Of a stretch of DNA of 64,000 bases, positions 956 through 51,238 are shown piece by piece. Where the stretch lies: positions 1,338 through 65,337 of IMG/VR virus record IMGVR_UViG_3300044716_000140; one strand, given 5' to 3'. How positions within the stretch are numbered: the first letter of the stretch is position 1; each line of letters starts with the position of its first letter. A program made the position numbers and the translations under genes. Below the pieces are notes generated by a model. It did no database searches. It was not told where the DNA came from and saw nothing but the letters and a program-made list of their open reading frames with translations. The DNA is from a virus. Taxonomy: Duplodnaviria; Caudoviricetes.

Positions 956-1201
956 ATGCCGTCCGAAACCGAAATCCCATCACGCATCCTCCCATTGCAG
1001 AGTTTAATCCCCGGTGCTAAACCATCAACTTCTCAATGGATCGAACGCGAAATTGCGATCAACGTGACGGACGGCAAGATTTACGTTCGGGTTGACGAGG
1101 CTCCCATCCTCGTCGCCGAGCGTATGCCTACACCACCAAGCGACACAGGAACATTTGCACTTAAAGTTGTAAATGGAATTTACACTTGGGTTGAAGAATG
1201 A
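956..1201 (+). CDS. small virion-associated protein
   Basis: EIAINVTDGKIY motif resembles the N-terminal anchor modules of phage fibres. Overlaps the next gene. Confidence 0.55.
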   Translation: MPSETEIPSRILPLQSLIPGAKPSTSQWIEREIAINVTDGKIYVRVDEAPILVAERMPTPPSDTGTFALKVVNGIYTWVEE

Positions 1202-1566
1202 AATTCCTTGTTTCCATATTTGTTATCTTACTGACAAGTTGCACATCTACTCCCCCAGTAGATCAACCGCAATTCGTCGGTAAATACAAAAATGCTTGCT
1301 TGCCAGAAGCAATCGCCATGACACAAGCATTGAAACAAAGTGGGATTCAAGCAAAAGTTCTTGTAGTAAATACTCCTAAGTTTAGCCATGCGTTGTCATG
1401 CTACCTTTATCCAACAAACCAAAACAAACTTTGGGTTTGGGATTCATATTGGAAAAGCATGAACCTTCGCGCATGGTGGGATAATTCTGATTCGGTTGCA
1501 AAAGAGTGGCTGAAATGGTGCAGTGCAGAAACCAAACTTACGAGTTCTCACTTTATAGAAAACTAA
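1198..1566 (+). CDS. lipoprotein with transglutaminase/papain-like Cys-His-Asp motifs
   Basis: Signal peptide with lipobox (MKFLVSIFVILLTSC), then NACLP...HALSC...WVWDS. Confidence 0.55.
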   Translation: MKFLVSIFVILLTSCTSTPPVDQPQFVGKYKNACLPEAIAMTQALKQSGIQAKVLVVNTPKFSHALSCYLYPTNQNKLWVWDSYWKSMNLRAWWDNSDSVAKEWLKWCSAETKLTSSHFIEN

Positions 1567-1570
1567 TTTT

Positions 1571-1792
1571 ATGATGGAGCAAGATGACATTCAGCGAACG
1601 CTCGGAATACTTTCCGGTAAACTTGATCTTGTGTTAGAAAATCAAAAAGACTTTGGCAGTAAATTTGCAGATTTTGAAAAACGCTTGCGTTCATTAGAAT
1701 CTCATCGCGGCTACGCATTTGGTATCATTGCAGCAGCAGCATTTATCTGGACAGTGTTTTTTGAATTTGTCAAAAACAAAATTACCAATTGA
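1571..1792 (+). CDS. coiled-coil protein with C-terminal TM helix (lysis cassette, holin/antiholin-like)
   Basis: Heptad N-terminal region followed by hydrophobic AFGIIAAAAFIWTVFF. Lies upstream of the endolysin. Confidence 0.55.
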   Translation: MMEQDDIQRTLGILSGKLDLVLENQKDFGSKFADFEKRLRSLESHRGYAFGIIAAAAFIWTVFFEFVKNKITN

Positions 1793-1986
1793 AATTTTTC
1801 TTGATTATTTTAATTTCCGCTTGCATGATTGGTTGTGTTAGTATATTAATTCCACCAACTGGAAAAAATGCAGGTGATTTAGGAAAAATACAAATTTCTT
1901 TGCAAGTCAAATATTTCCCAGTAGAACAGAAAATAGATTGGTTTAATCCAATCATTCCAGAACACAAAATATACAAAGACAAATGA
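1789..1986 (+). CDS. small putative lipoprotein (possibly spanin-like)
   Basis: TTG start, hydrophobic signal ending MIGC. Overlaps both neighbours by 4 nt. Confidence 0.45.
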   Translation: MKFFLIILISACMIGCVSILIPPTGKNAGDLGKIQISLQVKYFPVEQKIDWFNPIIPEHKIYKDK

Positions 1987-2159
1987 AAATACTTGATTAC
2001 ATACTTACTCGTTTATCTGAAACATCCACTTGGCGCGGTGTAGCTATGATTGTTGCTGCATCTGGATTGGCTATTGAACCAAACCAATTCAATGCAATTG
2101 CAGCGGCAGGAATTGCTGTTGCAGGAGCAATCAATGTGTTTCGTCAAGAGAAAAAATAA
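1983..2159 (+). CDS. putative holin, 58 aa (absent from the ORF track)
   Basis: MKILDYILTRLSETSTWRGVAMIVAASGLAIEPNQFNAIAAAGIAVAGAINVFRQEKK: two hydrophobic segments and a basic tail, directly before the endolysin. Confidence 0.7.
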   Translation: MKILDYILTRLSETSTWRGVAMIVAASGLAIEPNQFNAIAAAGIAVAGAINVFRQEKK

Positions 2160-2161
2160 TC

Positions 2162-3616
2162 ATGCTTCACAAACTTATCGCCATCGCTTCTGCTGAAGTT
2201 GGCGTGAGGGAAGAAGGCGGAAATAATCGTGGAGAACGAATCCGCGAGTATCAATCCGCAACAGATTTAAACCCCGGAGCTTGGCCATGGTGTTTTGATG
2301 AATCGGTTGAAACACTAACAATATCTGGTTGGAAAAAATTATCAGCTATTGATAAAAAAGATATTGTCGCTCAAGTTGATTCTGATACCAGAAGCGTTTC
2401 TTTTGTTAATCCAATAGAAACAATTCATGTTAATAAAAAAATTCCAATAGCGACAATTAAAACTCGATCCTTGAGTTTCAAATGTGATGCAAATCATAAA
2501 TTTTGGGGGCATTGGAATACTTCAAAATTCAATCGCCATCCAGAACTTCGACCAATATCTGATTTGACATCATCCCTTGCTGTTCCAAGCGTAAAAAATA
2601 AAAATTCAGATAATGAAAAATTTTCTTTTCAAGATTTAGATTTTCTTGCAGCTTTTATTGCTGATGGATATTTTTCACGAAAAGAAAGGCAGCATCCTAA
2701 AATAAGGATTCAAGTAAGCAAGGAAAGAAAAATCCAAGAGCTTAAAAAATTTAAAGGCCAAGAACACAAAAGTTCAAAAATATACGGATCAAGTAAATTT
2801 CCTTTGACAACATTTGAATTTACTATTCCAGATTATTTTGATTCCGTTTTTTCTGACTATAAAGAAATACGATGGGATTGGGCGTTAAGTTTATCTGCAA
2901 AACAATCTGAATATTTTATAGATAGATATGTTTTTTGGGATGGCACAATAAGCACAAAGGTTATTTCAACTTCCAGAAAACAAAATTTAGATGTTTTTTC
3001 GGCTATGTCTATACTATGCGGCAAGCACCCTAATGTTAGACAACGAAAATTTGAAAATAAAAAAACTTGTTACGAAATTACAACAAAAAATAAAAATACA
3101 AGGACTTTTAAAAAAGAACACATTTCAATAAAAGAAGAAGAAATTGACTTGTATTGCATCAAAGTTCCAAGTGGAATTATTATCTGTAGAGATTCAAGCG
3201 GAACTCCATTTGTAACTGGTAATTGCGCAGGATATGTGGATTGGTGTATTCGTGAATGGTTGGCTATTCCACAAGTTGTAATCTGGCTTAATTTGCAACG
3301 GAGATCGCCAGAAGAATGGCGACCAAAGACAGCACTTGCGTATGGACTAAAATCTTGGGCATTACAGCGTCCAAGCACCACTAAAGTATATAATGAAACG
3401 CACAAGGCGCAGCTTGGTGACATCGTAACATTTGATTTCTCTCATGTTGGATTTGTTGTTGAAGATACAGGTAAGGAAATTATTACACTTGAAGGGAATA
3501 CAAATGGTAAAGGCGAAAGAGATTCAACAAGCGGAGACGGAGTTTGGAAAAAAATTAGAAAAAAAAGCCTTGTAAAAGATTTGATTCGCATTCATCCAAG
3601 TATCGCATCGATATAA
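2162..3616 (+). CDS. CHAP-domain endolysin interrupted by an intein (173 aa after splicing)
   Basis: The spliced product reads EVGVREEGGNNRG...PWCAGYVDWC...GDIVTFDFSHVGFV...TLEGNT, the CHAP Cys/His/EGN signature. Confidence 0.9.
   Translation: MLHKLIAIASAEVGVREEGGNNRGERIREYQSATDLNPGAWPWCFDESVETLTISGWKKLSAIDKKDIVAQVDSDTRSVSFVNPIETIHVNKKIPIATIKTRSLSFKCDANHKFWGHWNTSKFNRHPELRPISDLTSSLAVPSVKNKNSDNEKFSFQDLDFLAAFIADGYFSRKERQHPKIRIQVSKERKIQELKKFKGQEHKSSKIYGSSKFPLTTFEFTIPDYFDSVFSDYKEIRWDWALSLSAKQSEYFIDRYVFWDGTISTKVISTSRKQNLDVFSAMSILCGKHPNVRQRKFENKKTCYEITTKNKNTRTFKKEHISIKEEEIDLYCIKVPSGIIICRDSSGTPFVTGNCAGYVDWCIREWLAIPQVVIWLNLQRRSPEEWRPKTALAYGLKSWALQRPSTTKVYNETHKAQLGDIVTFDFSHVGFVVEDTGKEIITLEGNTNGKGERDSTSGDGVWKKIRKKSLVKDLIRIHPSIASI
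2291..3223 (+). mobile_element. intein (311 aa) with LAGLIDADG homing endonuclease, in the endolysin
   Basis: Block A CFDESVETLTISGW; block B CDANHKF; LAGLIDADG-like FLAAFIADG and YVFWDG; block F/G LYCIKVPSG...FVTGN|C. More AT-rich than the exteins. Confidence 0.92.
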
Positions 3617-3622
3617 ATAAAT

Positions 3623-4387
3623 ATGGCTAATATTGCACACAAATGGAAAAAAGTGTTAGCAGTTTCGTGCACACACGCTCGTTATTGTGATTCCGAAGCG
3701 TGGAAAGCAGTAATGTCATTTAAGGAAAAATACAAACCAGACACAATACTTCATCTTGGTGACTTTATTGATATGTCTGCGCTAATGGGAAATGGCGCAG
3801 GGTCTGGTAATGATGGAGATGAAATAACTCCAGATATTGATACTGGATTAACTCATTTGCGACAACTAATGGCAGGATGCAAAGACCCATATATCCTTTG
3901 TGGCAACCATGAAGATCGAGCGTGGAAGCTAACAAATAGTAAAAATGCCGTTACATCATATTGCGCCCACAAAATTATTTCTGCAATTGAAGATACATCA
4001 AAAAAACTTAAAGCAAGGTTGATTCCGTATTCTGGAATTGAACAAATTGTTGATATAGCAGACATGGGATTTACTCATGGAACTTGTTATGGAGAATCTG
4101 CGGCAAGAGACATGGCAGAGCAATATTGTGATAGAAGCAGGCGCAAAATAATTATGGGGCATACTCATCGTGTAGCCATTCAAAATGCCAGAACATATCA
4201 TGGTGGAACTTGCTATAATATTGGAACTCTTACTGCTCGCGGAGCATTAGAGTATGCTAAAAATCGCAGAAGCACATTCAGTTGGTGTCAAGGATGGTTG
4301 TGGGGCGAGTATTGCGAGTCATTGCATCAATCATCGCTTCAAATCACGCAACGAGCAAAAGGAGATGTGTGGAGACTTCCAATATGA
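3623..4387 (+). CDS. calcineurin-like metallophosphoesterase
   Basis: GDFID, GNHE, THG and GHTH motifs. The first DxH motif is CTH. Confidence 0.85.
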   Translation: MANIAHKWKKVLAVSCTHARYCDSEAWKAVMSFKEKYKPDTILHLGDFIDMSALMGNGAGSGNDGDEITPDIDTGLTHLRQLMAGCKDPYILCGNHEDRAWKLTNSKNAVTSYCAHKIISAIEDTSKKLKARLIPYSGIEQIVDIADMGFTHGTCYGESAARDMAEQYCDRSRRKIIMGHTHRVAIQNARTYHGGTCYNIGTLTARGALEYAKNRRSTFSWCQGWLWGEYCESLHQSSLQITQRAKGDVWRLPI

Positions 4388-4644
4388 CTCCAAACGATTT
4401 CCTAAAAATAATCCAAGATAGTATCTATAAACGATACGAGCCAGTTCCTAAAGGGTGGTATTCAATTGTCGAGCTATGTAAAATATGGAATTTAAATTCA
4501 AGTCATGCTTCTCGAAAAGTTAGAATGGGAATTGAACTTGGAATAGTTGAAAAGAAAGATTACTTTTTACAAAAAAGTAATGGAGTAAGAAAAGTTCCAC
4601 ATTATTTTTTCCATGACGAAAAAAAGCGTAAAAGCAAGAATTAA
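4384..4644 (+). CDS. hypothetical protein, possible winged HTH
   Basis: ATG overlaps the upstream stop; PKGWYSIVELCKIWNL...VPHY. Confidence 0.55.
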   Translation: MTPNDFLKIIQDSIYKRYEPVPKGWYSIVELCKIWNLNSSHASRKVRMGIELGIVEKKDYFLQKSNGVRKVPHYFFHDEKKRKSKN

Positions 4645-4909
4645 TGGTCAATTGTGGACTATTAAGTTTGGACATCCCGGCAAGACTGACGGGGTGACTG
4701 ACGATGGTTGCTGCGACTACGAAAAACGCTTGATTACAATCAATCCCAACTCGCAAAGCAACCTTCTAAATGTTTTATCGCACGAACTAATTCACGCAAG
4801 GTTGTCAGATTTACAAGAAGAAACAGTAGAAGAACTCGGAACGCTTATTGACGAAGTTTATTGGCAAGTGCTAAAACTTTCTTTTGACAAAACAAAAACA
4901 ACAAAGTAG
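4613..4909 (+). CDS. small zincin-like (HEXXH) metalloprotease
   Basis: GCCDYEKRLITIN...VLSHELIHA...EETVE. Confidence 0.7.
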   Translation: MTKKSVKARINGQLWTIKFGHPGKTDGVTDDGCCDYEKRLITINPNSQSNLLNVLSHELIHARLSDLQEETVEELGTLIDEVYWQVLKLSFDKTKTTK

Positions 4910-4912
4910 AAA
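4884..4912 (+). promoter_or_regulatory. candidate sigma70-like promoter for the tail operon
   Basis: TTGACA-17 bp-TAGAAA just before ATG 4922. The -10 is imperfect. Confidence 0.4.
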
Positions 4913-4921
4913 ACACAAATT

Positions 4922-5668
4922 ATGTCTTGCGGATGCAATAATTCAACTTATTCCAGCACTTGTTGCCCAGAGGTTCCATATCCTCAAATCTCATCTGAAT
5001 CAATTCCATCACTGATCAGCAACCTTGTTTACGCTCTTTATGGAACAATAAACAAATCCGTTGTAAATGGACGAGTTGTTTGGGACATTCCATGTGATCC
5101 AAATAATACCGCACAAGTAGATCAAATTCCACGGGAAGAAGGCGAGGGACTGTTGTGTTACCTTTTGAGATTGTTTGCTCAATCGCTTGATGGATATGGT
5201 CAATTTTTACGCTGGGGATTTACTGGTTCTGGTCAATCTGCGTTTACTTTGACTGGAGCTTACCAACCAGATCGGAATGCTTATTTGGCATATATCGATG
5301 GCGTTGTTCAAGACCCGATTAATTATACAATTTCTACTTCATTACCGCGAGTCTTAACATTTAGTGCGCCCATTCCAAGTGGGTCATTTCTAACTATTGT
5401 TGAACTTTCCAGCAGGGCTGGAGCAACTGGTGCTACAGGGCCATCGGGAGGACCGAATGGCGCAACTGGCGCAACAGGATTGACAGGTGCTACTGGTGCA
5501 ATGCCCATGGGCGGAGGAACCGATAAAATATTTTATGAAAATGATATTGTAATGACTGCAAATTACACTATTACTTCTGGTAAGAACGCAATGTCAGCAG
5601 GCCCAATCACAGTAAACCCCGGAGTTATTTTGACAATACCATCAGGCAGCACCTATACAATCGTATGA
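4922..5668 (+). CDS. virion protein with Cys-rich N-terminus and short collagen-like repeat
   Basis: MSCGCNNSTYSSTCCP; GATGATG repeats; C-terminal NYTITSGKNAMSAGPITV module common in phage fibres. Confidence 0.7.
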   Translation: MSCGCNNSTYSSTCCPEVPYPQISSESIPSLISNLVYALYGTINKSVVNGRVVWDIPCDPNNTAQVDQIPREEGEGLLCYLLRLFAQSLDGYGQFLRWGFTGSGQSAFTLTGAYQPDRNAYLAYIDGVVQDPINYTISTSLPRVLTFSAPIPSGSFLTIVELSSRAGATGATGPSGGPNGATGATGLTGATGAMPMGGGTDKIFYENDIVMTANYTITSGKNAMSAGPITVNPGVILTIPSGSTYTIV

Positions 5669-22726: not shown

Positions 22727-24457
22727 ATGGCAATCTCATACTCTGGCGAAGGATACAAGTTCAATCCTCAATTTGCCAATCTTGGCGCATTGCAAGGATT
22801 GCAACCGCTTGATGTCACTCGCAAAGCTGAATTTCAGCTTCAGCCATTGACATACGCTCCTATTCCATCCTCGCGTCCAGAGATTGTGTCTGAAGGTATC
22901 TCCAAGGGCATTCTTGCTGCTGTTGGCGGCATTACTGAAGGCATTACTGCTAAATACAAGACAGAGCAGGCTAAAGAGGAGAAACTTGCTGAAAGAGCGC
23001 ATGACTTGAAAGTAGCCGCTCTTAAAGCAAAACAATACGATCCATATATTGAAGCACTTAAAACAAAAAAATTAGAGTTAGAAACTGACGCGATTAATAA
23101 ACGAATTGAAGGCTCTGTTCCTGCTGGAGCAAAAAGAAGAATTTATCATTCAATAGATACAGAACCGCTTCCAGAATCAACGGAAACAACTGATGATAAG
23201 ATTGATTTTAATTTAACTCCATCAGGTTTAGAAACTACTTCAATTCAAGGAGGCGATATGTCTGCAAACATTGCAGATCAAGCAAAAGCACTTGAAGGAA
23301 TTTCCGCTGAATATTTAACAGCATCAACTGATTCTGGAGTTGGGCCATTTGCACCAATTGAACAACCTAAATCAATGCAACTTGGAAAGGTTTCAACAAG
23401 TTTGATTTCTCCAGAACAAGAAAAAGAAATTCAATCAAAGTTTGAACCTTACGGAATTCCAAGTGTTCTTGAAAAAGCACCACAAAAAACTTTGTTGTCA
23501 ATTGAAAAAGCTCAACCTAAAGAAGAAGTAAAAATAAAACCTCCTCGCGCTATTGATGTTGATACTGAAGAAGAAGCGCAAGCTGAAGCGTATCGTGACA
23601 TACCCGGTTTTAAAGAAGGAACATATACACAAGAAATTGATGAAAATGGACAACCATTTTATCGCGTTAAAGCTCGTGAAAAAATGAGTCCATCAGAAAT
23701 TGCCGATCTAAAAAAGAAAGAAGCTGAAGCAAGAAAAGCAGAGTTAGAAGGAACTGAAGGGAAAAAAGAAAAACTTCAACAATTTCAACTTCAATCATTT
23801 GAAAATGTAAATCGCGCACAAGAAACGCTTGCTGATTTGGAAAAACATCTTGAAAAAGTTCAAGGAAAACTTGGGCCTGTGTCTGGAAGATTGCTTTCTA
23901 AAAATCCATATGATCCAGATGTTCAACTTTTGCAAAAATATCTTACAGCATTGGTTCCAACAATTGCTCGCGGCGTTTATGGTGAAGTTGGTGTTTTGAC
24001 TCAAGCTGATATTGATAACTATAAACAATTAATTCCAAATATTACTCAAGACCCCGCAAACGCAAAAGCTACATTGGAGTTTTTAAAAAGAGATTTAGAG
24101 AGAGCCAAAAAAACTAAATTAGGTATTTGGGAATCAACAAATTTTGATGTTGAGGGATTAAAAAAATTTACTCAAGTAAGTGAACCAGCAGAAAAAGATC
24201 AACAAGACCAAATTTCAACTCTTTCAATGGAGCTTGAGCAGGTTCCAGTAGATCAAAGAAACTCTCCAGACTTCCTTGCAAAGCGCAAAGTATTATTTGA
24301 TCTTGTTAAACAACAAGAAGAGTTGAAAAAGAAATCACAACCAAAACCAACTCCAACTCCTACTCCAGTTCCACAACCAACATTTCAACCAGCGGTTCCT
24401 CGCCAGACAGTAACAGAATACGGAGAAACAATAGAATCGATGTTTGGAAATAGATAA
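22727..24457 (+). CDS. internal virion/ejection protein
   Basis: 576 aa, helical, with ARGVYGEVGVLTQADI motif; lies before the giant protein. Confidence 0.6.
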   Translation: MAISYSGEGYKFNPQFANLGALQGLQPLDVTRKAEFQLQPLTYAPIPSSRPEIVSEGISKGILAAVGGITEGITAKYKTEQAKEEKLAERAHDLKVAALKAKQYDPYIEALKTKKLELETDAINKRIEGSVPAGAKRRIYHSIDTEPLPESTETTDDKIDFNLTPSGLETTSIQGGDMSANIADQAKALEGISAEYLTASTDSGVGPFAPIEQPKSMQLGKVSTSLISPEQEKEIQSKFEPYGIPSVLEKAPQKTLLSIEKAQPKEEVKIKPPRAIDVDTEEEAQAEAYRDIPGFKEGTYTQEIDENGQPFYRVKAREKMSPSEIADLKKKEAEARKAELEGTEGKKEKLQQFQLQSFENVNRAQETLADLEKHLEKVQGKLGPVSGRLLSKNPYDPDVQLLQKYLTALVPTIARGVYGEVGVLTQADIDNYKQLIPNITQDPANAKATLEFLKRDLERAKKTKLGIWESTNFDVEGLKKFTQVSEPAEKDQQDQISTLSMELEQVPVDQRNSPDFLAKRKVLFDLVKQQEELKKKSQPKPTPTPTPVPQPTFQPAVPRQTVTEYGETIESMFGNR

Positions 24458-24458
24458 A

Positions 24459-27400
24459 ATGGCAAGCATTCTTGACGAAATCAAGGCAGAAGTCGAAGCG
24501 GAACTATCTCAACAACCTCAAGAAGAAAAGCCAGCAAGCGTTCTTGAAGATGTTAAGCAGGAGGTTTCGGCAGAACCACAACAAACTCCAGTTGAAGAAC
24601 CAAAAGCTGATTTTTTTGAGTCTGCCGAAAGGTGGTTAGAACCTGCTCCAACGCAAAAATCCAGCGGAGATATTTTCCTTGGACTTATTTCAAATAAACG
24701 TTCAAACGAGCTTGACGATGAAGAAAAAGGTTTGTTTAACGCATTAAGCGATGAGGAACAATACAAGGTAGCTCAATCTCGCAAAGATATTCCGCTTAAT
24801 GACGCTCAAGCAAGGCGCATTTTTGAGGTTGAAAAGTCAAAGATGCCATCAATTCCTACATCTTGGGAGGATTGGTATAATCTTGGTGGTGATGCTTGGG
24901 ATGTCGTTAAAAATGTTTCAAAGTTAGGTGCAAAAGTTGGACTTGGAGCAGCGGAATTCGGACGCGATGTTGTCAAGGCAACTGACATGACTGTCAGTGA
25001 CGAAGAAGCTGCTAATAACATTAAAAAAGCCAAAGGTTCATTCTACTCGTTCATGGCTCCAGCTTTTGAGATTCCAGAAAGCGTAGCATGGGCAACAGCA
25101 AAAGCACAAGAAGGTGGTTTTGGTTGGGCGGATGCTGCTGGTGAAAAACTTGGCTTGGTAAATCCAGAAGATCGATTTGAACGCTGGAAAGGACGAAGGT
25201 TAGTTTCGCAAGCTCAAGCTGAATACTTCCGTGAACATCCAACTGTTTATAGTAGGATGCTTGATAATCCGCTGGCAAAAGATGCGCTTTCATACATTGC
25301 AAAATCGCAAATGGAATCGCCAGAAGAATTGGCAGTAAGAGACAATATTTCTGTTGAAGAAGCAAAAGCTCAACAGGACGCGATGGCGCGTGAGCAAATT
25401 GATAATTTGACTTCTGATATGGAGTCTGAATTGCCAGAAGAAAATGCTCGCGTAAGAATTGCTGGTGAGTTTTTGCTTCCCGGTGAGCTTGGAATGGGAA
25501 CAATGGGTGCTGTTTCAGCGGTTGCAAAGGCAGGAACAGGCATCGCAAAAGGATTGAAATACATTGGCAAATCCGCTGATGAAATTGCTGAAATCAACAA
25601 GGCAGCACAAACACTGCGAAAGTCTGAATTTGCAGAAATGCTTAGAAAGCGCACAGAGCGAGCAGAAGCGGTTGCTCAAGGTGCAGGCAAGATTGAAAAA
25701 GCGATTGAAAGATTTAAACCTGCCGCTGAAAAAGTAAATAAAGTTCTTGGTAACATTACCGCGCCTGTTCTTGGTGGCGTTGCTGGCTATAGCGTTTACG
25801 AAGAATCGCCAATGACTGGTATTTTGAGTGGCGTTCTTGGTGGAGTTGCTGCGAGAGGTGTATTGAAAGGAACGAAGGTTGGTCTTGAAATTCCCACATT
25901 TGTTCGTGAGGTTGCAGAAGCTCGTAAGGTTGCACCTCTTGGCAAGACATTTGAGACACTCGGCAAATCCGCTGAAGGATCGGCATTGAAGGCTAAAATT
26001 CTTTCCCGTGGAGGAAAGACGATTGATAACATCCTTTCCAACTCCGTTGAGTATGCAAAAACTGGAATTCATGGAACAACGCTTGCTCTTGCTACTGGAG
26101 CTTTGGAGTCCGCTGATCCAGAGGAGATGAAGCAAATGCTCGCTGATGGTCTTGCAATCACTCTTGGTGGACGCGCATTGCAGCATATCAAGGGCAAGAT
26201 GATGGGCAATGACCCTATCATTGAGCAACGCGAGCGTATTTCAGACGATTCTCGCATCCATCGCAGGTATCAAGAAGCTGATCCAGAAACCCAAGCAAAC
26301 TTGGATCAAATTTCTGACTTTGATAATGCTATTTCTGCAAGAGAAACAAAGCTGAACGAAAGTGAATCTGACCTTGCAAACTTGATGGCAGCTTACAAGG
26401 GTTCAGCGGAAGATGCCAGAAAAATTAAACTTGCTCAATCGGAAGTAGAAAAAAACAAGATTGCACTTGATCAAGTAAAACGCGCCAATGTGCAAACGCG
26501 CAATGAATTTGGCAGGGAGTTTTTGAAGACATACGCAAACCTTCAAGACATTACCAATGGTGTTATGAAGAGTGGTCAGAACAATGTTGGATTCAATGTT
26601 CTTTCGACCGATCAAATCTATCAAAAGTTGCGTAATGATCCAGCGAACAGCAATGTTCCAGACGCTGATCTTGCACAGATGGCAAGCCAAGCTGGATTTT
26701 ACTCAAATCCCGCACAACAAGGGCTTGCATTTGACCGCAGAAAACCATCGATTGTTATCAATGCAGATTCCATTCGTGAGCGCATCAAGTTGTTTGGTGA
26801 ATCGCCAACGGAAGCACTGGTTCACGAAACATCGCACTTCATGGATGTTGTTCCAGAGTTCCAAGAAGCACTTGCTCCAGTGCGTTCAATGCTTTTCCAA
26901 AACGAAATCCGCGATGCCGCTGGAAACATCAAGGCTACAACTTCTGGTATTTTCTCCAAGGCAAAACTCGTTGAACTTTTTAATGATGGATACCTTCGCC
27001 ATTTAGACCCGCAAGGAAGAGAAGCATTTTCCAAGCTGAACAAACTTTGGGATGAATCCCGTGGTCAGTTGGATGAAAACAAAGTTGCCAACTACATGAA
27101 GAGCGAAGTCATGGCAGACTTGCTTGGAGAAGTGTCCAGCAGGCATCTTGCAAATGATTTGGATTCCGCAACACTTGCCATGTGGGATCGTGCAAGGATC
27201 AAAGCAAAGAAAAACTTGCTGGATCGTGCTATCAATCGTTTTTACGGACTTGGAGGACGAGGTGACATTGTTACTGCCGCTAATACACGCGCAGAATTCC
27301 CGCCAGAAGCGATGGCGGCAGCAAGAGATGCAATGCGCCAGATCGTTTCTTTAAATGGCGAAATTTCGCCTCCAGCGCAAGAAGCTGATATGCCTGCTAT

Positions 27401-30400
27401 CAGCAAGGCGCAGATGATGAAAAACTCTGCGTTGATCGAGCGTTTCGGAAAAGATTCTCCGCTATTCAAAACAGAGTTTAAAGTCAAGGTATTTGACAAG
27501 GACGGCAATCAGGTTGGCGAGTCAATGCCAGTGACAACGCCAAATCCAAGGGAAGGAACATTCCAAAGCACTGATGTTGGAATGAAGAAACTTTCTGGAT
27601 ATGGCGACATTCCAGCGGAAGCGCAAGGACTGCAAGTTCCCGAAGGCGGAACTCTTGTTGTCTCGCGTGATTTGGTCATGGAACCAGATGGGGTAACTCC
27701 TGTCATGTATGACGCGAAGGACGCAAAGAAAATTGATGCAGACCGCAAAAAGCTGATTACCGAAGCACTGGATACTGATGATTACGGGACACCTAATCGT
27801 TTTGAGCCAGTAGCAGAAGGCTCAGAAACATATCGCGGCACATTTACTCCAGCGCAAATTCAAGCAATCAAGGATATGCCAGAGAGTCTTGTGCCAAGGA
27901 CGCTCAAAGAGCATATGCTGAAAGTTAATGATGCCATTGCTCGCGGAGATGGAACAAGGTTTATTGTGGATTACGCAGCGGTAATGAATGACAAGGGCAA
28001 GTATCAAGCATTCTCGCCAAAGATGTATGACCTTGTGCCAATCGGAATGCACTTGTCTAAAAAAGGCAATTTCCTTGTAACAACGATTTCTGTTGGACGC
28101 ATATTTGATAAAATGCGCTTGTGGAATGAGCGTATGCCGGGTCGTTTGCGTTTCTGGGACAACAATCTTGAGCGCACATTTGATGATTTCTCGAAGTATT
28201 TGAATAACTGGCAACAAGGCAAAGCTGGAGAAACTGGTCTTGATGCCGATCCTCAAGTTGCATTGCAGAAGAAGAACATTTTTAACGACCTTCTGAACCT
28301 TTACGACAAAGGAACTGAATTTACAAACCTTGATAGGACAACTATTCCTCGCAAAAAAGGTGATCCACGGAACAAGGATGCTAACCGCACGATCATGTCA
28401 ATTCGCGTTGACCACATTGCTGAATTGATTCCAAACGAGAACGCAACAAAACTTCCAGTCAATTACGGATTTGCCAAAATCAATTTCATGCCAGAACGCA
28501 TGGAAGGTGAAGTTCCAACGCAGGAGCCTACTATTGGAGAAAAAACTGAAATTTATCCAAAGATAGGTAGACCTACTATCTCAGAAAAACCGAAAAGTTC
28601 GGAGATGATAGGTGCTGACACAATCAAACCCGCTGATCTTCAAACAAGTGCAAAACCAGAAGCTGACTCAGTAATCAAGCCATTCTCCAACGTTTTAGTG
28701 TCATCCGCTGGACTCATCAACTTCCTTCCTGCTTATCACGGCACTCCATTTGAAGTGGACAAGTTCAAGTTGGCAAACATCGGCACTGGCGAAGGAGCGC
28801 AGGCGTATGGATGGGGGTTGTATTTTGCGCAGGCAAGAAAGGTTGCTGAAGAATATGCAAGAGTATTAGCTAATAGAGATTTAACTGGATACAAAAATGC
28901 ACAATTAAATGCAAAAGATATTGTTTCAAGGTTAGGCGGCAATGCTGAATATGCAGCAGAAATATTGCGAGATCAGTTACAATCAATTCCAGAAAATTCA
29001 TTAAATTTTACAAGAATTTCTGATACATTAAAAATGATCGAAACAGGAGAGTATGCAAAAGACCTTGAAGCACAGGGCAACCTCTACAAAGTCGATATCG
29101 ATGTGAAAGACGAAGACTTGCTTGATTGGGATAAACCATTGAGTGAGCAACCAGAAAGTGTTCGTGATGCGATTACTGCAATTATCAATGAGCGCATTCC
29201 AAAAGAAATTGCTGATTCAGCTATTGAAAACATGGAAGCTAAAGGAGGTTCGCTCTACGCTTTGATTTCAGATAGCTTTGGTGAAAGCGCACAGGGAACT
29301 CCAGAGAAGCGAGCATCTGAAGCATTGCTTGAAGCAGGAATTCCCGGCATCCGCTACCTTGATCAACAAAGCAGAGCAACAACAGGTGGGAATATTTTAG
29401 GTGTTTGGCAAGGCGAACAACGCATGATGGAAGATAAGGGTAGGGGGAAATGGTTTGCTCGCGTTCAAGTTAAAGATCGCAGTGTTGCATTTCAAAACGC
29501 TCCAACTTCAGTAAGCACTACAAGTATGCCTTTCAATACAAGAGAAGAGGCGCAAGCGTGGGCTGAAAAGAAAATATCTGAAGGCACATACAACTATGTC
29601 GTCTTCGATGAGAATCTAATCACCATTCTTGACAAGAACGATAAGCCTGTTGCTGGCGAGTTGCCGACAAAGCAACCATTGGGTGGTATTCAGTTCATGC
29701 CGCAACGTCCAGTTGGTAAAACTCAAGCTGGATATGATTACACATATTTAGACCAAGCAATGGCAAGAGGCAAAGATGGAAGGGTTGCATTAACGCGACC
29801 TGTTCGTGCAGATGAAGCATTGCCGTTGCTATCACAACGAATTCCAATAACTGAACAGGTTGATAAAGATTCGTTTGATTATACAAGACCAGCGGAAGTT
29901 GTATTTTATCAACATGAAAATAAACCTGTATCGTTTAAATACGATCCAGAGCTTATTGAAAAACCTGTTTTTAAAGACATAGCTACAGAACACGCAGGAA
30001 AAAATGTTCAGCTTGCAATGGCAGACAGGCAAACTGCCACAGGTGGAGATATGGGAGGAATTATCTTCCCGTGGTTGAAATCAAATGCTAATGCAATTAT
30101 TATTGGTGATGATGGAATAAAATATAGGGCTGTTTGGGGTAATAATGAATGGAAACCAGTGTTTTCCATGAAAAATAAAAACATCAATTTCAATGCGTCT
30201 AATTTATTGACATATTTGATGGGTGAAGATGCTCATGCATCGAATACAAGGGAAGTAAGGGTAATTTCAAATGAGATTGAAAATTCAAAAATATCAAGAA
30301 ATCAAAAAGATTTATTTTTAATACTTGCTAATATTGGAGTTAAAAAACAGAAAAGAGCAGATCAACAAAAAAATATAAAATCTGCAAATGATAGTATTGA

Positions 30401-31211
30401 AGAAGCGAAAAAACTTACCCAAGAATCAACTGATAAAGAAGAAATTAAAAAATTAAAAGATTTAATTAAATCAAAAGAAAAAGATATAGAGATAGCTCAA
30501 TCAAAATTTGATAAATTTATTGAAACTTCTGATGAAGAATTAATTAAACAAGTAATAACAAAATACAAAACTTCTTACACAAGATTTAAGGGCGGAACTG
30601 GCAGCGAAAACAATTTCATCAAAAATCAAAAAGCATTGAATGAATTTAAACAAACAAAATCATTCAAAAATCTGCTAAAATTAGTTAAAAATAAACAACT
30701 AATAAGTTTGGATGATACTTTCAAGGGAAGAAAAGCATCAATTGCTCAAATTTTAGGACTTACTATTGATGATTTCAATGTTGATAATATTCTTAATGAA
30801 ACAATGGATTTCAAAAACGGAAGAATTAATCAGATTGTTGGCAGCGTTGAACTTTCCAGAAATCCAGATTTGATGGCAGTGTATTTAGGTGATGATCCTA
30901 ATCAAGCAAAACGCATGACTGCACAAGAGGCAAGGGCGGCAGCGCAATTGAAATCTAATCCAAACTTTGTTCCGCACGAAGCATATTCTTGGGCAATGCT
31001 TGGGCCAGTTGATGGAAATTATTTTTTGAATTCAAATCCAAAAACACATTTGGAATACTTCCCTGATTTCAAAGAAGCATACGCAAACATTCAAGACGAT
31101 GCTGATAAAAAGAAAAAAATTCTTGAAGGAAACGAAACGACGCTGATGGGTGCAATAAGAGACAACACTCAAATGCCTCTTGCAATGCCTGCAATTTCTG
31201 CTAAAAAATAA
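24459..31211 (+). CDS. giant polyvalent ejection protein (~2250 aa) with zincin HEXXH and ADP-ribosyltransferase-like domains
   Basis: LVHETSH near 26820; AYHGTPFEVDKF...IGTGEGAQAYGWGLYF...GIPGIRYLD...NYVVFD at 28731-29640. The ORF track gives TTG 24444; ATG 24459 is more likely. Confidence 0.75.
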   Translation: MASILDEIKAEVEAELSQQPQEEKPASVLEDVKQEVSAEPQQTPVEEPKADFFESAERWLEPAPTQKSSGDIFLGLISNKRSNELDDEEKGLFNALSDEEQYKVAQSRKDIPLNDAQARRIFEVEKSKMPSIPTSWEDWYNLGGDAWDVVKNVSKLGAKVGLGAAEFGRDVVKATDMTVSDEEAANNIKKAKGSFYSFMAPAFEIPESVAWATAKAQEGGFGWADAAGEKLGLVNPEDRFERWKGRRLVSQAQAEYFREHPTVYSRMLDNPLAKDALSYIAKSQMESPEELAVRDNISVEEAKAQQDAMAREQIDNLTSDMESELPEENARVRIAGEFLLPGELGMGTMGAVSAVAKAGTGIAKGLKYIGKSADEIAEINKAAQTLRKSEFAEMLRKRTERAEAVAQGAGKIEKAIERFKPAAEKVNKVLGNITAPVLGGVAGYSVYEESPMTGILSGVLGGVAARGVLKGTKVGLEIPTFVREVAEARKVAPLGKTFETLGKSAEGSALKAKILSRGGKTIDNILSNSVEYAKTGIHGTTLALATGALESADPEEMKQMLADGLAITLGGRALQHIKGKMMGNDPIIEQRERISDDSRIHRRYQEADPETQANLDQISDFDNAISARETKLNESESDLANLMAAYKGSAEDARKIKLAQSEVEKNKIALDQVKRANVQTRNEFGREFLKTYANLQDITNGVMKSGQNNVGFNVLSTDQIYQKLRNDPANSNVPDADLAQMASQAGFYSNPAQQGLAFDRRKPSIVINADSIRERIKLFGESPTEALVHETSHFMDVVPEFQEALAPVRSMLFQNEIRDAAGNIKATTSGIFSKAKLVELFNDGYLRHLDPQGREAFSKLNKLWDESRGQLDENKVANYMKSEVMADLLGEVSSRHLANDLDSATLAMWDRARIKAKKNLLDRAINRFYGLGGRGDIVTAANTRAEFPPEAMAAARDAMRQIVSLNGEISPPAQEADMPAISKAQMMKNSALIERFGKDSPLFKTEFKVKVFDKDGNQVGESMPVTTPNPREGTFQSTDVGMKKLSGYGDIPAEAQGLQVPEGGTLVVSRDLVMEPDGVTPVMYDAKDAKKIDADRKKLITEALDTDDYGTPNRFEPVAEGSETYRGTFTPAQIQAIKDMPESLVPRTLKEHMLKVNDAIARGDGTRFIVDYAAVMNDKGKYQAFSPKMYDLVPIGMHLSKKGNFLVTTISVGRIFDKMRLWNERMPGRLRFWDNNLERTFDDFSKYLNNWQQGKAGETGLDADPQVALQKKNIFNDLLNLYDKGTEFTNLDRTTIPRKKGDPRNKDANRTIMSIRVDHIAELIPNENATKLPVNYGFAKINFMPERMEGEVPTQEPTIGEKTEIYPKIGRPTISEKPKSSEMIGADTIKPADLQTSAKPEADSVIKPFSNVLVSSAGLINFLPAYHGTPFEVDKFKLANIGTGEGAQAYGWGLYFAQARKVAEEYARVLANRDLTGYKNAQLNAKDIVSRLGGNAEYAAEILRDQLQSIPENSLNFTRISDTLKMIETGEYAKDLEAQGNLYKVDIDVKDEDLLDWDKPLSEQPESVRDAITAIINERIPKEIADSAIENMEAKGGSLYALISDSFGESAQGTPEKRASEALLEAGIPGIRYLDQQSRATTGGNILGVWQGEQRMMEDKGRGKWFARVQVKDRSVAFQNAPTSVSTTSMPFNTREEAQAWAEKKISEGTYNYVVFDENLITILDKNDKPVAGELPTKQPLGGIQFMPQRPVGKTQAGYDYTYLDQAMARGKDGRVALTRPVRADEALPLLSQRIPITEQVDKDSFDYTRPAEVVFYQHENKPVSFKYDPELIEKPVFKDIATEHAGKNVQLAMADRQTATGGDMGGIIFPWLKSNANAIIIGDDGIKYRAVWGNNEWKPVFSMKNKNINFNASNLLTYLMGEDAHASNTREVRVISNEIENSKISRNQKDLFLILANIGVKKQKRADQQKNIKSANDSIEEAKKLTQESTDKEEIKKLKDLIKSKEKDIEIAQSKFDKFIETSDEELIKQVITKYKTSYTRFKGGTGSENNFIKNQKALNEFKQTKSFKNLLKLVKNKQLISLDDTFKGRKASIAQILGLTIDDFNVDNILNETMDFKNGRINQIVGSVELSRNPDLMAVYLGDDPNQAKRMTAQEARAAAQLKSNPNFVPHEAYSWAMLGPVDGNYFLNSNPKTHLEYFPDFKEAYANIQDDADKKKKILEGNETTLMGAIRDNTQMPLAMPAISAKK

Positions 31212-48154: not shown

Positions 48155-48398
48155 ATTTAACTTGCCAGAGCAGGAGTGGGATTTTAAATACGCTTGTGCT
48201 GGATTGGATGCGCTATTGACACTGAACGACATTGATCAGGAGCTTCGGTCAGCGGTGCGTTACCATACTGGCGAATTTACGCATTACATTGACGAGGAAA
48301 CTGGCGAGCGGAAGTTTTGCTGCAATGATACATTGCATCATGTTCGCAAGGTTATAAACGAAATGGTTCACGAACGAAAATTGCCAGAACTAATTTGA
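48132..48398 (+). CDS. conserved phage hypothetical protein
   Basis: KATLEFNLPE...IDQELRS motif. Confidence 0.65.
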   Translation: MEAKATLEFNLPEQEWDFKYACAGLDALLTLNDIDQELRSAVRYHTGEFTHYIDEETGERKFCCNDTLHHVRKVINEMVHERKLPELI

Positions 48399-51238
48399 CA
48401 GCAGATGTTAAAAACGCAATCGCCTTGGCAGAAAAAATTCGTGCCGAGGTTGATAACGCGACTGATGAAGATCGCGGGATATTGCTTGCCGCAAAGTATA
48501 TTATAACAAATGTTTCAAATACAACTGGCAACTTTAAATTAGACCTACCATTTGCAAAGAGTGTTGTATTGCAGTTTGTAAACGAACTGCTTAACAAAGA
48601 TCAATTTGAGGCAGCGGCAACTGTCTTGTGGGGGCAACAAGTTTACGACTGGCGACCACAATCTTCGATGGATACATGGAGATGCTTATTTGATCATGAT
48701 AAGTTGCTTATTCAGGGTGCTGGAGCGATGGGAAAAACATTTGGCGCAGCGGCATGGTTTCTGCTGGACTGGATGCGTGACCCTCACTACACTTGCATTA
48801 AAGTTGTTTCACTTACTGCTGAACACGCTCAACGCAACGTATTTGCTGCTATTAAAAAGTTTTATACGACTGCATTGGTAAGACCAGAATTTGATGGAAG
48901 CGAAACGCTTGTAAAAAGCATACAGGCAAATAATGACTCAAAGAACGGAATTCATCTTGTAGCTATCCCAAAGGGTGATAGCGGAACTGGAACTTTGCGT
49001 GGTTTCCATCCAAGTCCAAGAGCAGGCAAGCCACATCCAACATTTGGACAAATGTCCAGAACTCATGTTGTGCTGGACGAAGCGGAAGAAGTTCCTGCTG
49101 GCGTTTGGGAAGGTTTGCAAAACATCTTGTCCGCAGCGGATACGGAAGGCGCAAAAGGACGCATTAAAATTTTTGCTGCGAGCAACCCAAAGGATAGGAC
49201 AAGCGAGTTTGGCAAGCGGTGCGAACCAGAGCGAGGTTGGGGATCGGTGGATTGCGAGGATGACTTTGAATGGGAGTCACGCGATGGTTGGCACGTATTG
49301 CGCCTTGATGCCGCACGATGCGAAAACGTCATTGAGCAGAAAATTGTTTTTCCCGGCTTGCAGACTAACGAAGGCTACACGGCATACGAAGCGAAAGGAA
49401 GAACCGCTGAATATTACTGTGCCGACACAGAGACGGAGGTTTTATCAAAGCGTGGATGGTTGAAGCACGATCAACTTAATGTTGGAGATACGATTTATAC
49501 TGTAAATATTGATACTGGTTTTGCAGAGTGGCAAGATGTTAATGAGGTATTTGCGAAACATTATGATGGAAATCTTGTGTCTATGGAGAGCCGCCACATT
49601 TCTGCTCTTGTTACTCCAAATCATAGGTGGGCGACAACAAATAAACAGATACTCAAAACAAAGAAAAATTTTCGCTTTAAAATCAAAGAAACATCAAATC
49701 TTGCAAAGCATGACATGATTCCGCTTTGCAGAAAATCTATTGATAATGAAAAAATATATGATGAAGATTTTGCAGAACTAATTGGATGGATTGTTACAGA
49801 TGGAAGTTTTAGTGAATACAATAGAGTTTTTATTTACCAATCTCAAAAAGCAAATCCACATAAATGCGATAAAATACGAGAACTTTTAATTAAATTGAGA
49901 CATCCATTCCAAGAAGAAGAATATAATGGAATGATTCATTTCAAATTTGCGAATAATCTTGGAAGAATGGTTAAAGAAGCAATTCCTAATAAAAAACTAA
50001 CAATTAATTTTATTGAAAAGCTAAACAATGATGGAAGGCGCAAACTTTTCGAGTCAATGGTTCTTGGTGATGGTGGAATTCAAGGTGGTAGCACAAAATA
50101 CATTTGCACCAAAGATAAAAAGCAAGCTGAAGTTTATTCAATTTTGATAAACAGACTTGGGATGGCAAGCCGAATACACGAAAGGTTTGTTAAAGGTAAT
50201 TTTATCAAACAAACAAATTATCAATCTAAAGGCTGCACAATGTATTATGTTGATGCATTGGAAACCAAAAATGTTCGTGTTCAATACATGAACATGAAAG
50301 AAGTTCCATACTCTGGAGTTGTTTGGTGTCCAAGAACAGACAACCAAACATTTTTTGCAAGAAGGGATGGAAAGTGTTATTTTACTGGGAACACAATGGC
50401 GCGTGGTTGGTTCCCGCAGGAAGGTATCAGCATGGCAATAATTACACCATCGATGCTTGATAACGCGATGGGTAACGTGCGGTTTATTGGGCCTGTAGTG
50501 CCTCTGGCAGCGTTTGACTTGGCATTGGAAGGCAATGATAGCGTTGTGTGTTCTTTCGGAAGATTTGGACTTTGTGATGGGTGGACACCGATGAGTGGTC
50601 AGTTTATTCCTTTCAAGACTCCGAGAACAGTATTGCAACTTGATTCGCAGATGACATTTCCGAAGGCGGCAACGCTGGAGCAAACTTACAACATTATTAA
50701 GTTTTGTAAGAACATGAAGATTTCTCCGAACTGGTTGTGCGTTGACCGAACTGGAAATGGCGCAGGAATCCATGACTCGCTGAAAACCTTGTTTGGTGAT
50801 GAAGTTCTTGGCGTAAACTATTCTTGGGCGGCAACGGACACGCATATCCTCGGAGATGATTCACAGAAGGCGAGCGAGCTTTACAACGGAGTGGTTACTG
50901 AATTGTTGTTTGGATTATCCAAGTATCTTGAGTTTGAATACCTCAAAATATCACCGGGATTCCGCAACGATCAACTTGTGCGTCAAGCAACTGGAAGACG
51001 CTATATGCAAAAAGGTAAGGGCATGGTGCGTGTAGAAAGTAAAAAAGATTATGTTAAGCGGACACGGCAACCATCACCAGATGCTTTGGACTCGCTTTCA
51101 ATGCTGGTATTTCTTATGCGACAACGCGCAGGCTCAACTGCGACTATGGTAGAAAACAAAAAAGAAACTCCGCGATTAATGGATCGTGAAATGTTCTCTA
51201 TCGTGGATAAGATACAATTTATTGATTTTAGCGAATAA
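48395..51238 (+). CDS. terL: terminase large subunit with intein (622 aa after splicing)
   Basis: Walker A GAGAMGKT, Walker B VVLDEAEE, ASNP; nuclease AFDLALEGND, VDRTGNG, SPDALD. Confidence 0.92.
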   Translation: MTADVKNAIALAEKIRAEVDNATDEDRGILLAAKYIITNVSNTTGNFKLDLPFAKSVVLQFVNELLNKDQFEAAATVLWGQQVYDWRPQSSMDTWRCLFDHDKLLIQGAGAMGKTFGAAAWFLLDWMRDPHYTCIKVVSLTAEHAQRNVFAAIKKFYTTALVRPEFDGSETLVKSIQANNDSKNGIHLVAIPKGDSGTGTLRGFHPSPRAGKPHPTFGQMSRTHVVLDEAEEVPAGVWEGLQNILSAADTEGAKGRIKIFAASNPKDRTSEFGKRCEPERGWGSVDCEDDFEWESRDGWHVLRLDAARCENVIEQKIVFPGLQTNEGYTAYEAKGRTAEYYCADTETEVLSKRGWLKHDQLNVGDTIYTVNIDTGFAEWQDVNEVFAKHYDGNLVSMESRHISALVTPNHRWATTNKQILKTKKNFRFKIKETSNLAKHDMIPLCRKSIDNEKIYDEDFAELIGWIVTDGSFSEYNRVFIYQSQKANPHKCDKIRELLIKLRHPFQEEEYNGMIHFKFANNLGRMVKEAIPNKKLTINFIEKLNNDGRRKLFESMVLGDGGIQGGSTKYICTKDKKQAEVYSILINRLGMASRIHERFVKGNFIKQTNYQSKGCTMYYVDALETKNVRVQYMNMKEVPYSGVVWCPRTDNQTFFARRDGKCYFTGNTMARGWFPQEGISMAIITPSMLDNAMGNVRFIGPVVPLAAFDLALEGNDSVVCSFGRFGLCDGWTPMSGQFIPFKTPRTVLQLDSQMTFPKAATLEQTYNIIKFCKNMKISPNWLCVDRTGNGAGIHDSLKTLFGDEVLGVNYSWAATDTHILGDDSQKASELYNGVVTELLFGLSKYLEFEYLKISPGFRNDQLVRQATGRRYMQKGKGMVRVESKKDYVKRTRQPSPDALDSLSMLVFLMRQRAGSTATMVENKKETPRLMDREMFSIVDKIQFIDFSE
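49418..50392 (+). mobile_element. intein (325 aa) with LAGLIDADG homing endonuclease, in TerL
   Basis: Y|CADTETEVLSKRGW; VTPNHRW; IGWIVTDG and MVLGDG; VWCPRTDNQTFFARRDGKCYFTGN|T. Confidence 0.93.

Follow-up and report, generated by a model that had tools for sequence, protein, structure and literature searches.

We analyzed a window of 64,000 nucleotides (nt), which covers nearly all of a 65,337-bp virus record of IMG/VR (IMGVR_UViG_3300044716_000140, Caudoviricetes) with a CheckV completeness of 100%. The large open reading frames (ORFs) of the window are all on the + strand and include relatives of DnaB-type helicase, terminase, tail-fibre and internal-virion proteins. The stretch is present in sequencing runs labelled lake-water, freshwater or riverine metagenome (24 rows, 17 studies), one of them possibly the source. 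The ORF at 2162-3616 (+) is a single open frame of 484 amino acids (aa) plus stop, in which an intein sits between Trp43 and the sole invariant cysteine of its protein family. It reads ...GAWPW|CFDESVE...FVTGN|CAGYVDWC..., exactly as the original prediction, made from the letters alone, had read the two junctions. Excision of codons 44-354 (window 2291-3223, 933 nt, 311 codons) leaves a product of 173 aa. The earlier claim that removing this segment restores a CHAP motif is borne out by natural alleles of 173 aa and by empty sites at the DNA level. The features of the locus are the following, with counts referring to the alignments described below.

2162..3616 (+): precursor gene, a CHAP protein (probable endolysin) interrupted by an intein; one open frame with Pfam CHAP and PHROG endolysin matches.
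2162..2290 (+): N-extein of 43 aa with ...AWPW at its end, comprising the first two CHAP helices in the AlphaFold 2 model; colinear with residues 1-43 of intein-less alleles.
2291..3223 (+): 311-aa intein running from Cys1 to Gly310-Asn311, with a class-1-type HINT domain into which a LAGLIDADG homing endonuclease is inserted; assigned from precise presence or absence, Foldseek, guanine-plus-cytosine (GC) content and the ratio of nonsynonymous to synonymous substitution rates (dN/dS).
2291..2329 (+): splicing block A (Cys1...Thr10...Gly13); Cys1 and Gly13 in 56/56 alleles, Thr10 in 55/56.
2483..2509 (+): splicing block B (C-D-A-N-H), with Asp B:7, His B:10 and Phe B:12; His in 56/56 and 79/79, Asp in 51/56.
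2636..2674 (+): first LAGLIDADG motif (..AAFIADG..); Asp in 55/56, Gly in 56/56, I-DmoI-like fold, sub-threshold LAGLIDADG_3 match.
2912..2950 (+): second LAGLIDADG motif (..VFWDG..); Asp in 55/56, Gly in 56/56.
3149..3169 (+): splicing block F (L-Y-C), with an invariant Cys at F:4; C332 of the precursor in 56/56 and 79/79.
3209..3223 (+): splicing block G (F-V-T-G-N), with penultimate Gly and terminal Asn, each in 56/56 and 79/79.
3224..3226 (+): Cys+1 (C355 in the precursor, C44 in the spliced form), predicted splice nucleophile and CHAP catalytic cysteine; invariant in every alignment; helix 44-55 of the spliced-form model starts with it.
3224..3616 (+): C-extein, 130 aa plus stop; Pfam CHAP on residues 351-446, Foldseek matches to CHAPK, LysGH15 and LysIME-EF1.
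3443..3445 and 3491..3499 (+), within the C-extein: predicted catalytic His428 and Glu444-x-Asn446, respectively; His and Asn invariant.

The alleles that lack the insertion show how precise it is. A search among short proteins yielded 854 candidates, 339 of which match at E<=1e-3. Dozens of these have lengths of 169-175 aa, and the best intein-less match (P0002, 173 aa) is 95% identical to the exteins of the window protein. Such proteins are colinear with window residues 1-43 and 355-484 and miss residues 44-354 (alignment A1). At the DNA level, the alignments of three contigs begin upstream at window 787 (L007 and L009) or 1738 (L006), stop at 2292 and restart at 3224; the insertion is thus precise and 933 nt long. 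Its boundary is ambiguous by 2 nt (TG), the first intein codon being TGT and the +1 codon TGC in both forms. In addition, an intein-less query retrieved 80 IMG/VR loci, all of them (80/80) with an uninterrupted site. Because an intein-less protein was the source of the search patterns, the uninterrupted junction among them, this set is biased to empty alleles and we rejected it as a source of intein frequency. Across these 80 loci, the core of the empty site encodes AWPW|CAA, and most of its first and second codon positions are conserved to 90% or more. The insertion is in frame and has no counterpart in otherwise colinear homologues, as in inteins. A group I or group II intron was considered and rejected: the frame is open through the insert and a Rfam scan of 1900-3900 found no intron-like RNA, its only match being a chance-level small nucleolar RNA (E 0.57, below gathering).

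Two alignments were used for the intein, one of 56 intein-bearing alleles that are 25-86% identical to the window protein (A4) and one of 79 (A5), and the blocks are numbered as in the passages of PMC4031507 that define them. Cys1, Gly13, the block B His, both LAGLIDADG Gly, the block F Cys, the penultimate Gly, the terminal Asn and Cys+1 are found in 56/56 alleles of A4, and both LAGLIDADG Asp as well as Thr10 in 55/56. C44, H112, C332, G353, N354 and C355 (precursor numbering) are found in 79/79 sequences of A5. Block by block, the residues are Cys A:1, Asp B:7, His B:10, Phe B:12, Cys F:4, Thr G:5, Gly G:6 and Asn G:7. All alleles thus have the position-1 nucleophile of class 1 (Cys44 of the precursor). 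The block B histidine is present as His112 (B:10), B:7 deviates from the usual Thr by being Asp in 51/56, and Asn354 closes the intein with Cys355 at +1. At G:6, a penultimate His, which is typical but not obligatory, is replaced by Gly353 in 79/79. Class 3 inteins, on the other hand, miss the position-1 nucleophile and have Trp at B:12, according to passages of PMC5050341 and PMC4031507, the latter also giving Asp and then Cys as the most frequent residues at F:4. Here Cys1 is invariant and B:12 is Phe, and of the class 3 features only Cys F:4 (invariant) and Thr G:5 (in the majority) are present. By its invariant Cys1, the CHAP intein is assigned to class 1.

The original prediction had also pointed out the Gly-Asn ending. 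The intein does end in this way, but the ending is nothing special: it is common to the whole intein family found here and belongs to known variation of phage class-1 inteins. In mycobacteriophages, the penultimate His of such inteins is often replaced by Gly, Lys or Ser, and the Bethlehem recombination directionality factor (RDF) intein, with a penultimate Gly, splices completely and is slowed down by a Gly-to-His change (passages of PMC5050341).

The precursor was modelled with a predicted local distance difference test score (pLDDT) of 88.9. Foldseek matched the modelled precursor to solved inteins with E from 6e-11 to 2e-9, namely TliVMA (6e-11), PI-SceI and PI-PfuI, as well as PhoVMA, which points to a HINT fold; the middle domain matched I-DmoI with a probability of 1.00. 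In sequence, residues 43-356 match PHROG families (PhoH-like, thymidylate synthase ThyX) with intein-bearing members. Likeness to other phage inteins by sequence and to solved inteins by fold, far beyond chance in both cases, confirms at these two levels that the insertion is a true intein.

Concerning the exteins, the Pfam CHAP model matches the C-extein at residues 351-446 with 28.4 bits for a cut-off of 26, and with 31.5 bits in a separate scan. The window protein matches three PHROG endolysin families, and P0002 matches PHROG endolysin families across its full length. In 42 intein-less homologues, with identities down to 37% (alignment A3; spliced numbering), no cysteine but C44 is invariant; H117 and N135 do not vary either, and E133 is conserved in at least 90%. 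The CHAPK active site is described in passages of PMC3448105 as a Cys54-His117-Glu134 relay with Asn136, and the order and spacing of Cys...His...Glu-x-Asn in the window protein match those given there. A search of solved-structure sequences with the extein profile gave only weak matches (PlyPy 5udm, E 0.1; LytN, E 0.17), and a fold search took its place. The AlphaFold model of P0002 has a pLDDT of 92.8 and a predicted template modelling score of 0.91, with helices at 2-10 and 25-31 and a helix 44-55 that starts at C44. The top matches of this spliced-form model in the PDB are phage endolysin CHAP domains, led by CHAPK (4csh, E 1.7e-4) and followed by LysGH15, LysIME-EF1, PlyGRCS, Ly7917 and PlyPy. 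The model thus displays a papain-like alpha+beta fold with a Cys at a helix N-terminus, as expected for a CHAP domain. A ribosomal protein match (E 0.002) in the solved-structure sequence search was dismissed as spurious, and an assignment to TIGR02594 (NCBIfam) was dropped with 14.6 bits for a threshold of 70.55. Among 50,697 cultured-phage records, no extein match was found within the sensitivity of tblastn for so short an extein, and the 18 matching records all match the intein part.

Invariance, motif order and helix position thus designate C44, the Cys+1 of the intein, as the CHAP nucleophile, in agreement with what had been claimed for this residue. Since the intein immediately precedes this nucleophile, the same cysteine would be the +1 splice residue and later the catalytic thiol. 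The idea of one thiol with two jobs therefore stands.

Several observations bear on the mobility of the intein. Both LAGLIDADG motifs of its endonuclease domain close with an acidic residue and a Gly (..FIADG.. and ..VFWDG..). Its GC content is 30.3%, versus 42.2% for the window, and only 0.8% of 933-nt windows are as low. Compared with the intein-less contig L007, the window shows no difference over 827-2158, and differences start at 2159; identity is 81% over 2200-2290, 79-88% over 3224-3500 and about 96% beyond 3500. These limits define one further feature:

2159..3502 (+): tract of divergence on both sides of the insertion, perhaps due to co-conversion or allele replacement, from the comparison with L007.

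Judging from this alignment, an intein-bearing allele has evidently replaced the resident one in a near-identical genome, and co-conversion during homing would be a natural reading of the tract and a possible one. Two runs are informative in this respect. In run X4, which belongs to another study than the possible source run, six other letters separate 2293 from 3233 in a contig with an overall depth of 99, which amounts to 933 nt lost on balance, and a second contig of depth 6.6 spans the intein (2228-3292). Run X3 holds an intein-spanning contig of depth 7.3 and a contig of depth 40 with the intein-less junction at its loose end. Both alleles thus coexist in single lake samples, and a search for intein-plus and intein-minus alleles in metagenomes, proposed along with the original prediction, has thereby found the two forms.

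Selection was estimated against L084, a 61.8-kb contig with the same intein. The dN/dS is 0.139 for the intein (0.106 within its LAGLIDADG portion, 0.065 within the C-terminal HINT portion) and 0.12-0.16 for the exteins; selection on the intein is purifying. At the nucleotide level, the intein is 80% identical between the two and the exteins 69-70%. The higher identity of the intein fits transfer between diverged host alleles together with selection on the endonuclease. Altogether, the within-sample polymorphism, the divergent tract, the selected LAGLIDADG motifs and the low GC content fit a selfish homing element.

The original prediction had treated this case as singular, which it is not. 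Of 295 other fetched proteins, 106 carry the CHAP intein (phmmer, E<=1e-3): in 78, a CHAP-like motif comes after a [W/Y]|C...GN|C junction, another 11 are truncated, and the remaining 17 have the intein in other exteins. The same intein is thus found at the same site in 78 diverged proteins. When the window protein is counted with these 78, 62 of the 79 score as CHAP; PG_binding_1 is found in 14, PG_binding_3 in 3, NlpC/P60 in 2 and SLT in 1, and one is a family A DNA polymerase let through by the junction filter. An exhaustive search of representative sequences gave 2,383 matches at E<=1e-3, in which at least dozens of 50%-identity clusters, 450-750 aa long, match query residues ~6-365 in one stretch. 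Near-length matches number 31, versus the 339 short ones. The intein-bearing CHAP relatives all come from metagenome sources.

A second site is also occupied in this family. Four proteins (P0139, P0143, P0144 and P0146; locus L016, ~4405-5440) have an empty Cys site and a different intein, of 346 aa, after the catalytic Glu-Gly-Asn (EGN|T). It starts with Ala1, ends in Thr-His-Asn|Thr, has a Trp two residues past the block B His and a block F Cys, and matches Pfam Hom_end and LAGLIDADG_3. With its Trp-Cys-Thr signature and Ala1, it is class-3-like in sequence. Since the inteins at the Cys site and at the Glu-x-Asn site are different, both catalytic motifs have been colonised independently.

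The phage itself has another intein, in its TerL gene (ORF 48395-51238). It is 325 aa long (49418-50392, boundaries read from motifs), starts with Cys1, ends in Gly-Asn before a Thr at +1, and combines this Cys1 with a Trp two residues past the block B His, a block F Cys and a Thr at G:5. The GC content is 33.6% in this intein and 45.3% in its exteins, and its identity with the CHAP intein is 22%.

As for the role of the host protein, of the 7 lysin-type Pfam families searched in the 65-kb genome, CHAP alone gives a match, and a single one. Phage_lysozyme, SLT, Amidase_2, Peptidase_M23 and GH25 gave no match in the genome, the search not extending to NlpC/P60, Amidase_3 and M15. The negative result for GH19 is void because its control matched in 0/14 control genomes. 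Pfam found no lysin domain in 8 large virion or unknown proteins. The CHAP protein is thus probably the endolysin of this phage, as far as domain matches can tell. Its gene closes a run of small ORFs:

1198..2159 (+): four small overlapping ORFs, lipoprotein-like and membrane-like, two of them with a signal peptide and a lipobox-like Cys, identified by eye.

The other ORFs of this run encode a coiled-coil protein with a C-terminal hydrophobic segment and a 58-aa protein with two hydrophobic segments, and the set could possibly correspond to a holin and spanins. Directly downstream of the CHAP gene, at 3623-4387, lies an uninterrupted gene for a calcineurin-like metallophosphoesterase; passages of PMC5050341 describe this family as a frequent intein host in mycobacteriophages.

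Two other observations were made in the window. A stretch of ~356 nt at 431-786, within the ORF 248-949 (Laminin_G_3), is unaligned with L007 and L009, which are otherwise 98-100% identical to the window; its counterpart is 410 nt in L007. This part of a concanavalin-like, probable tail-fibre gene looks like a swapped cassette of a receptor-binding-type protein. ART-PolyVal, the ADP-ribosyltransferase of polyvalent proteins, has a sub-threshold match (29.1 bits for 31.2) at residues 1429-1473 of the ORF 24444-31211, whose 2,255-aa product may be a giant polyvalent virion protein.

We propose that the gene encodes a CHAP-type peptidoglycan hydrolase, likely an endolysin, invaded by a mobile class-1 LAGLIDADG intein which is an ordinary selfish element, and we hold this reading to be very probable. 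The 484-aa precursor would be translated as a single chain in which the intein folds. Cys1 would form a thioester and Cys+1 would take over the N-extein, the block B His taking part with Cys1, the terminal Asn and Cys+1 in the standard four-step splicing. Cyclisation of Asn311 would then release a free 311-aa intein and a ligated 173-aa enzyme, in which Cys+1, freed by splicing, would become the CHAP catalytic nucleophile. Prior to splicing, the active-site cysteine, which heads the catalytic helix, would carry a domain of 311 aa. The precursor should thus be inactive because its thiol is engaged at the splice junction. The earlier proposal of an endolysin that is inactive until it is spliced is supported by this anatomy, both the fold and the active site being interrupted by the intein. 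We infer that splicing does occur, and efficiently, and that the endonuclease cuts the empty site. The intein would spread in co-infections, where its endonuclease would cut empty alleles and repair would copy the intein-bearing one. The site would have been picked for the AWPW|CAA-encoding DNA, which is highly conserved and a good homing target, and not for the regulation of lysis. Highly conserved target DNA is the type exploited by LAGLIDADG enzymes.

Some points weigh against this proposal. Splicing, the inactivity of the precursor and the activity of the endonuclease are all deduced. The Pfam LAGLIDADG_3 match reaches 17.3-18.9 bits, below the cut-off of 22.5, and no Pfam intein model matches the window protein (P0001), Intein_splicing being found in 3/79 alleles. 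The divergent tract could reflect ordinary recombination of a mosaic gene instead of endonuclease-driven co-conversion, and the depths in X3 and X4 are one figure per contig, not an allele frequency. The role of endolysin is drawn from family names and from the lack of another recognisable lysin, and the ORFs at 1198-2159 have no lysis annotation in Pfam or PHROGs. Finally, the presence of the same intein at the same site over a very deep divergence could fit a retained benefit.

Such a benefit is the core of the redox-, metal- or temperature-sensitive lysis gate put forward in the original prediction, in which splicing would either be slow or depend on redox state, metal ions or temperature. 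Active endolysin would accordingly be formed only late or only in suitable cells, and the intein would be kept for tuning the timing of lysis. The splicing centre does have three invariant cysteines (Cys1, Cys F:4 and Cys+1), and PMC6195587 reports that cysteine-rich splicing centres are sensitive to oxidative stress in other inteins. The persistence of the intein/site pair across 78 diverged proteins and the argument, made in passages of PMC5050341, that variation of the penultimate residue tunes the splicing rate could also be invoked. On the other hand, the N-extein has no cysteine to form a redox trap, and the only Gly-Asn phage intein tested is reported to splice completely (PMC5050341). 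Most relatives are intein-less (339 short versus 31 near-length; 80/80 loci empty, with the biased query), and the intein-spanning contigs are the low-depth ones in runs X3 and X4. Furthermore, the timing of lysis in tailed phages is normally set by the holin and not by the endolysin. We found no feature specific to regulation, and the data fit a selfish homing element; we thus consider the gate unlikely. The same low credence goes to its more precise version, a post-translational checkpoint in which oxidative or metal stress would trap the precursor via the three thiols and delay lysis.

One would also wonder whether the chemistry could be class-3-like, with the block F Cys instead of Cys1 attacking the N-terminal junction first, as in inteins of the Bethlehem DnaB type. 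The invariance of Cys F:4 in 79/79 and the Thr at G:5 (xTGN endings in 46 among the 71 listed of the 78) speak for it. So do the TerL intein of this phage, which has the Trp, the block F Cys and the Thr G:5 alongside Cys1, and the second-site alleles with their full Trp-Cys-Thr and Ala1. But Cys1 is invariant in 79/79 and B:12 is Phe, unlike class 3 as described in passages of PMC5050341 and PMC4031507, and Cys is the second commonest residue at F:4 overall (passages of PMC4031507). Such a chemistry is accordingly given quite little credit. A last explanation would be a dead insertion, where the intein no longer splices, the gene is inactive and lysis is achieved by some unrecognised enzyme. 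Splicing being deduced and the penultimate His being absent, one could be tempted by this view, and large virion proteins of unassigned function could hide a lysin. It is, however, hardly credible given that the frame is open, that all splicing and CHAP catalytic residues are intact and invariant across alleles, that dN/dS is 0.12-0.16 in the exteins and 0.14 in the intein, and that no other lysin domain was found among the searched Pfam families.

The proteins in which known inteins gather serve replication, repair, nucleotide metabolism and packaging. This uneven distribution has served as an argument on two sides, that inteins selfishly target conserved DNA and that they play regulatory roles. 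With a widespread intein in a peptidoglycan hydrolase, a lysis enzyme joins the range of intein hosts. It would also be a convenient test of conditional splicing, with lysis, zymograms and turbidity being easily scored and natural intein-plus and intein-minus alleles being available in near-isogenic phages. If the checkpoint were true, the CHAP endolysins of freshwater phages would be a natural system in which conditional splicing controls a decision of the phage life cycle. A practical warning concerns annotation and the mining of lysins: intein-bearing enzymes resemble proteins of 450-600 aa of partly unknown function.

Consistent with the earlier remark that inteins overwhelmingly occur in replication, repair and packaging ATPases and not in cell-wall hydrolases, we found no description of an intein in an endolysin, a CHAP protein or a peptidoglycan hydrolase in the main texts of the open-access literature and bioRxiv, a supplementary listing being possible; passages of PMC7468147, PMC7685451, PMC3556154, PMC3706429 and PMC10136315 belong to this literature. 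As to intein surveys, 'lysin' has 0 occurrences in PMC4760082 and in PMC5050341, and 'peptidoglycan' 0 in PMC4760082. What is new is thus apparently the class of the host protein and the insertion sites, the intein itself being conventional and without a new mechanism.

On the side of the host protein, the best folds are those of CHAPK of LysK (4csh), LysGH15 (4olk), LysIME-EF1 (6ist) and PlyPy (5udm), enzymes of staphylococcal or enterococcal phages that share the order and spacing of Cys...His...Glu-x-Asn and are 14-16% identical to the spliced form. We know of no intein in any of these four; the lysK gene is interrupted by a group I intron. On the side of the intein, the closest relatives in cultured phages (18 of the 50,697 records) are 23-26% identical over intein residues 1-311. 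They sit in genes for ribonucleotide reductase beta, DNA polymerase and nicotinamide phosphoribosyltransferase (Tenacibaculum PTm1, Escherichia, Staphylococcus and others), all of them nucleotide-metabolism or replication hosts, and 0/18 cover the CHAP exteins.

In structure, PI-SceI (1ef0, 1vde), TliVMA and PhoVMA (7qsu, 7qss, 7qst) and PI-PfuI (1dq3) display the same HINT domain with an inserted two-motif LAGLIDADG endonuclease. They are only 10-13% identical to the CHAP intein and their hosts are an ATPase or a ribonucleotide reductase. The CHAP intein differs from them by Asp B:7, Cys F:4 and Gly G:6, these four inteins ending in His-Asn. A parallel can also be drawn with class 3 inteins of the Bethlehem DnaB type, for which passages of PMC4031507 propose a phage origin: they share Cys F:4 and Thr G:5 with the CHAP intein, whereas the latter keeps Cys1 and has Phe instead of Trp at B:12. 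A likeness by description is found with the gp51 intein of Bethlehem, located in the RDF (metallophosphoesterase) (Kelley et al. 2016, passages of PMC5050341). Like the CHAP intein, it is a class-1 intein with Cys1, a LAGLIDADG endonuclease and a Gly-Asn ending, inserted beside an invariant active-site motif, but its host is a recombination directionality factor and not a cell-wall hydrolase.

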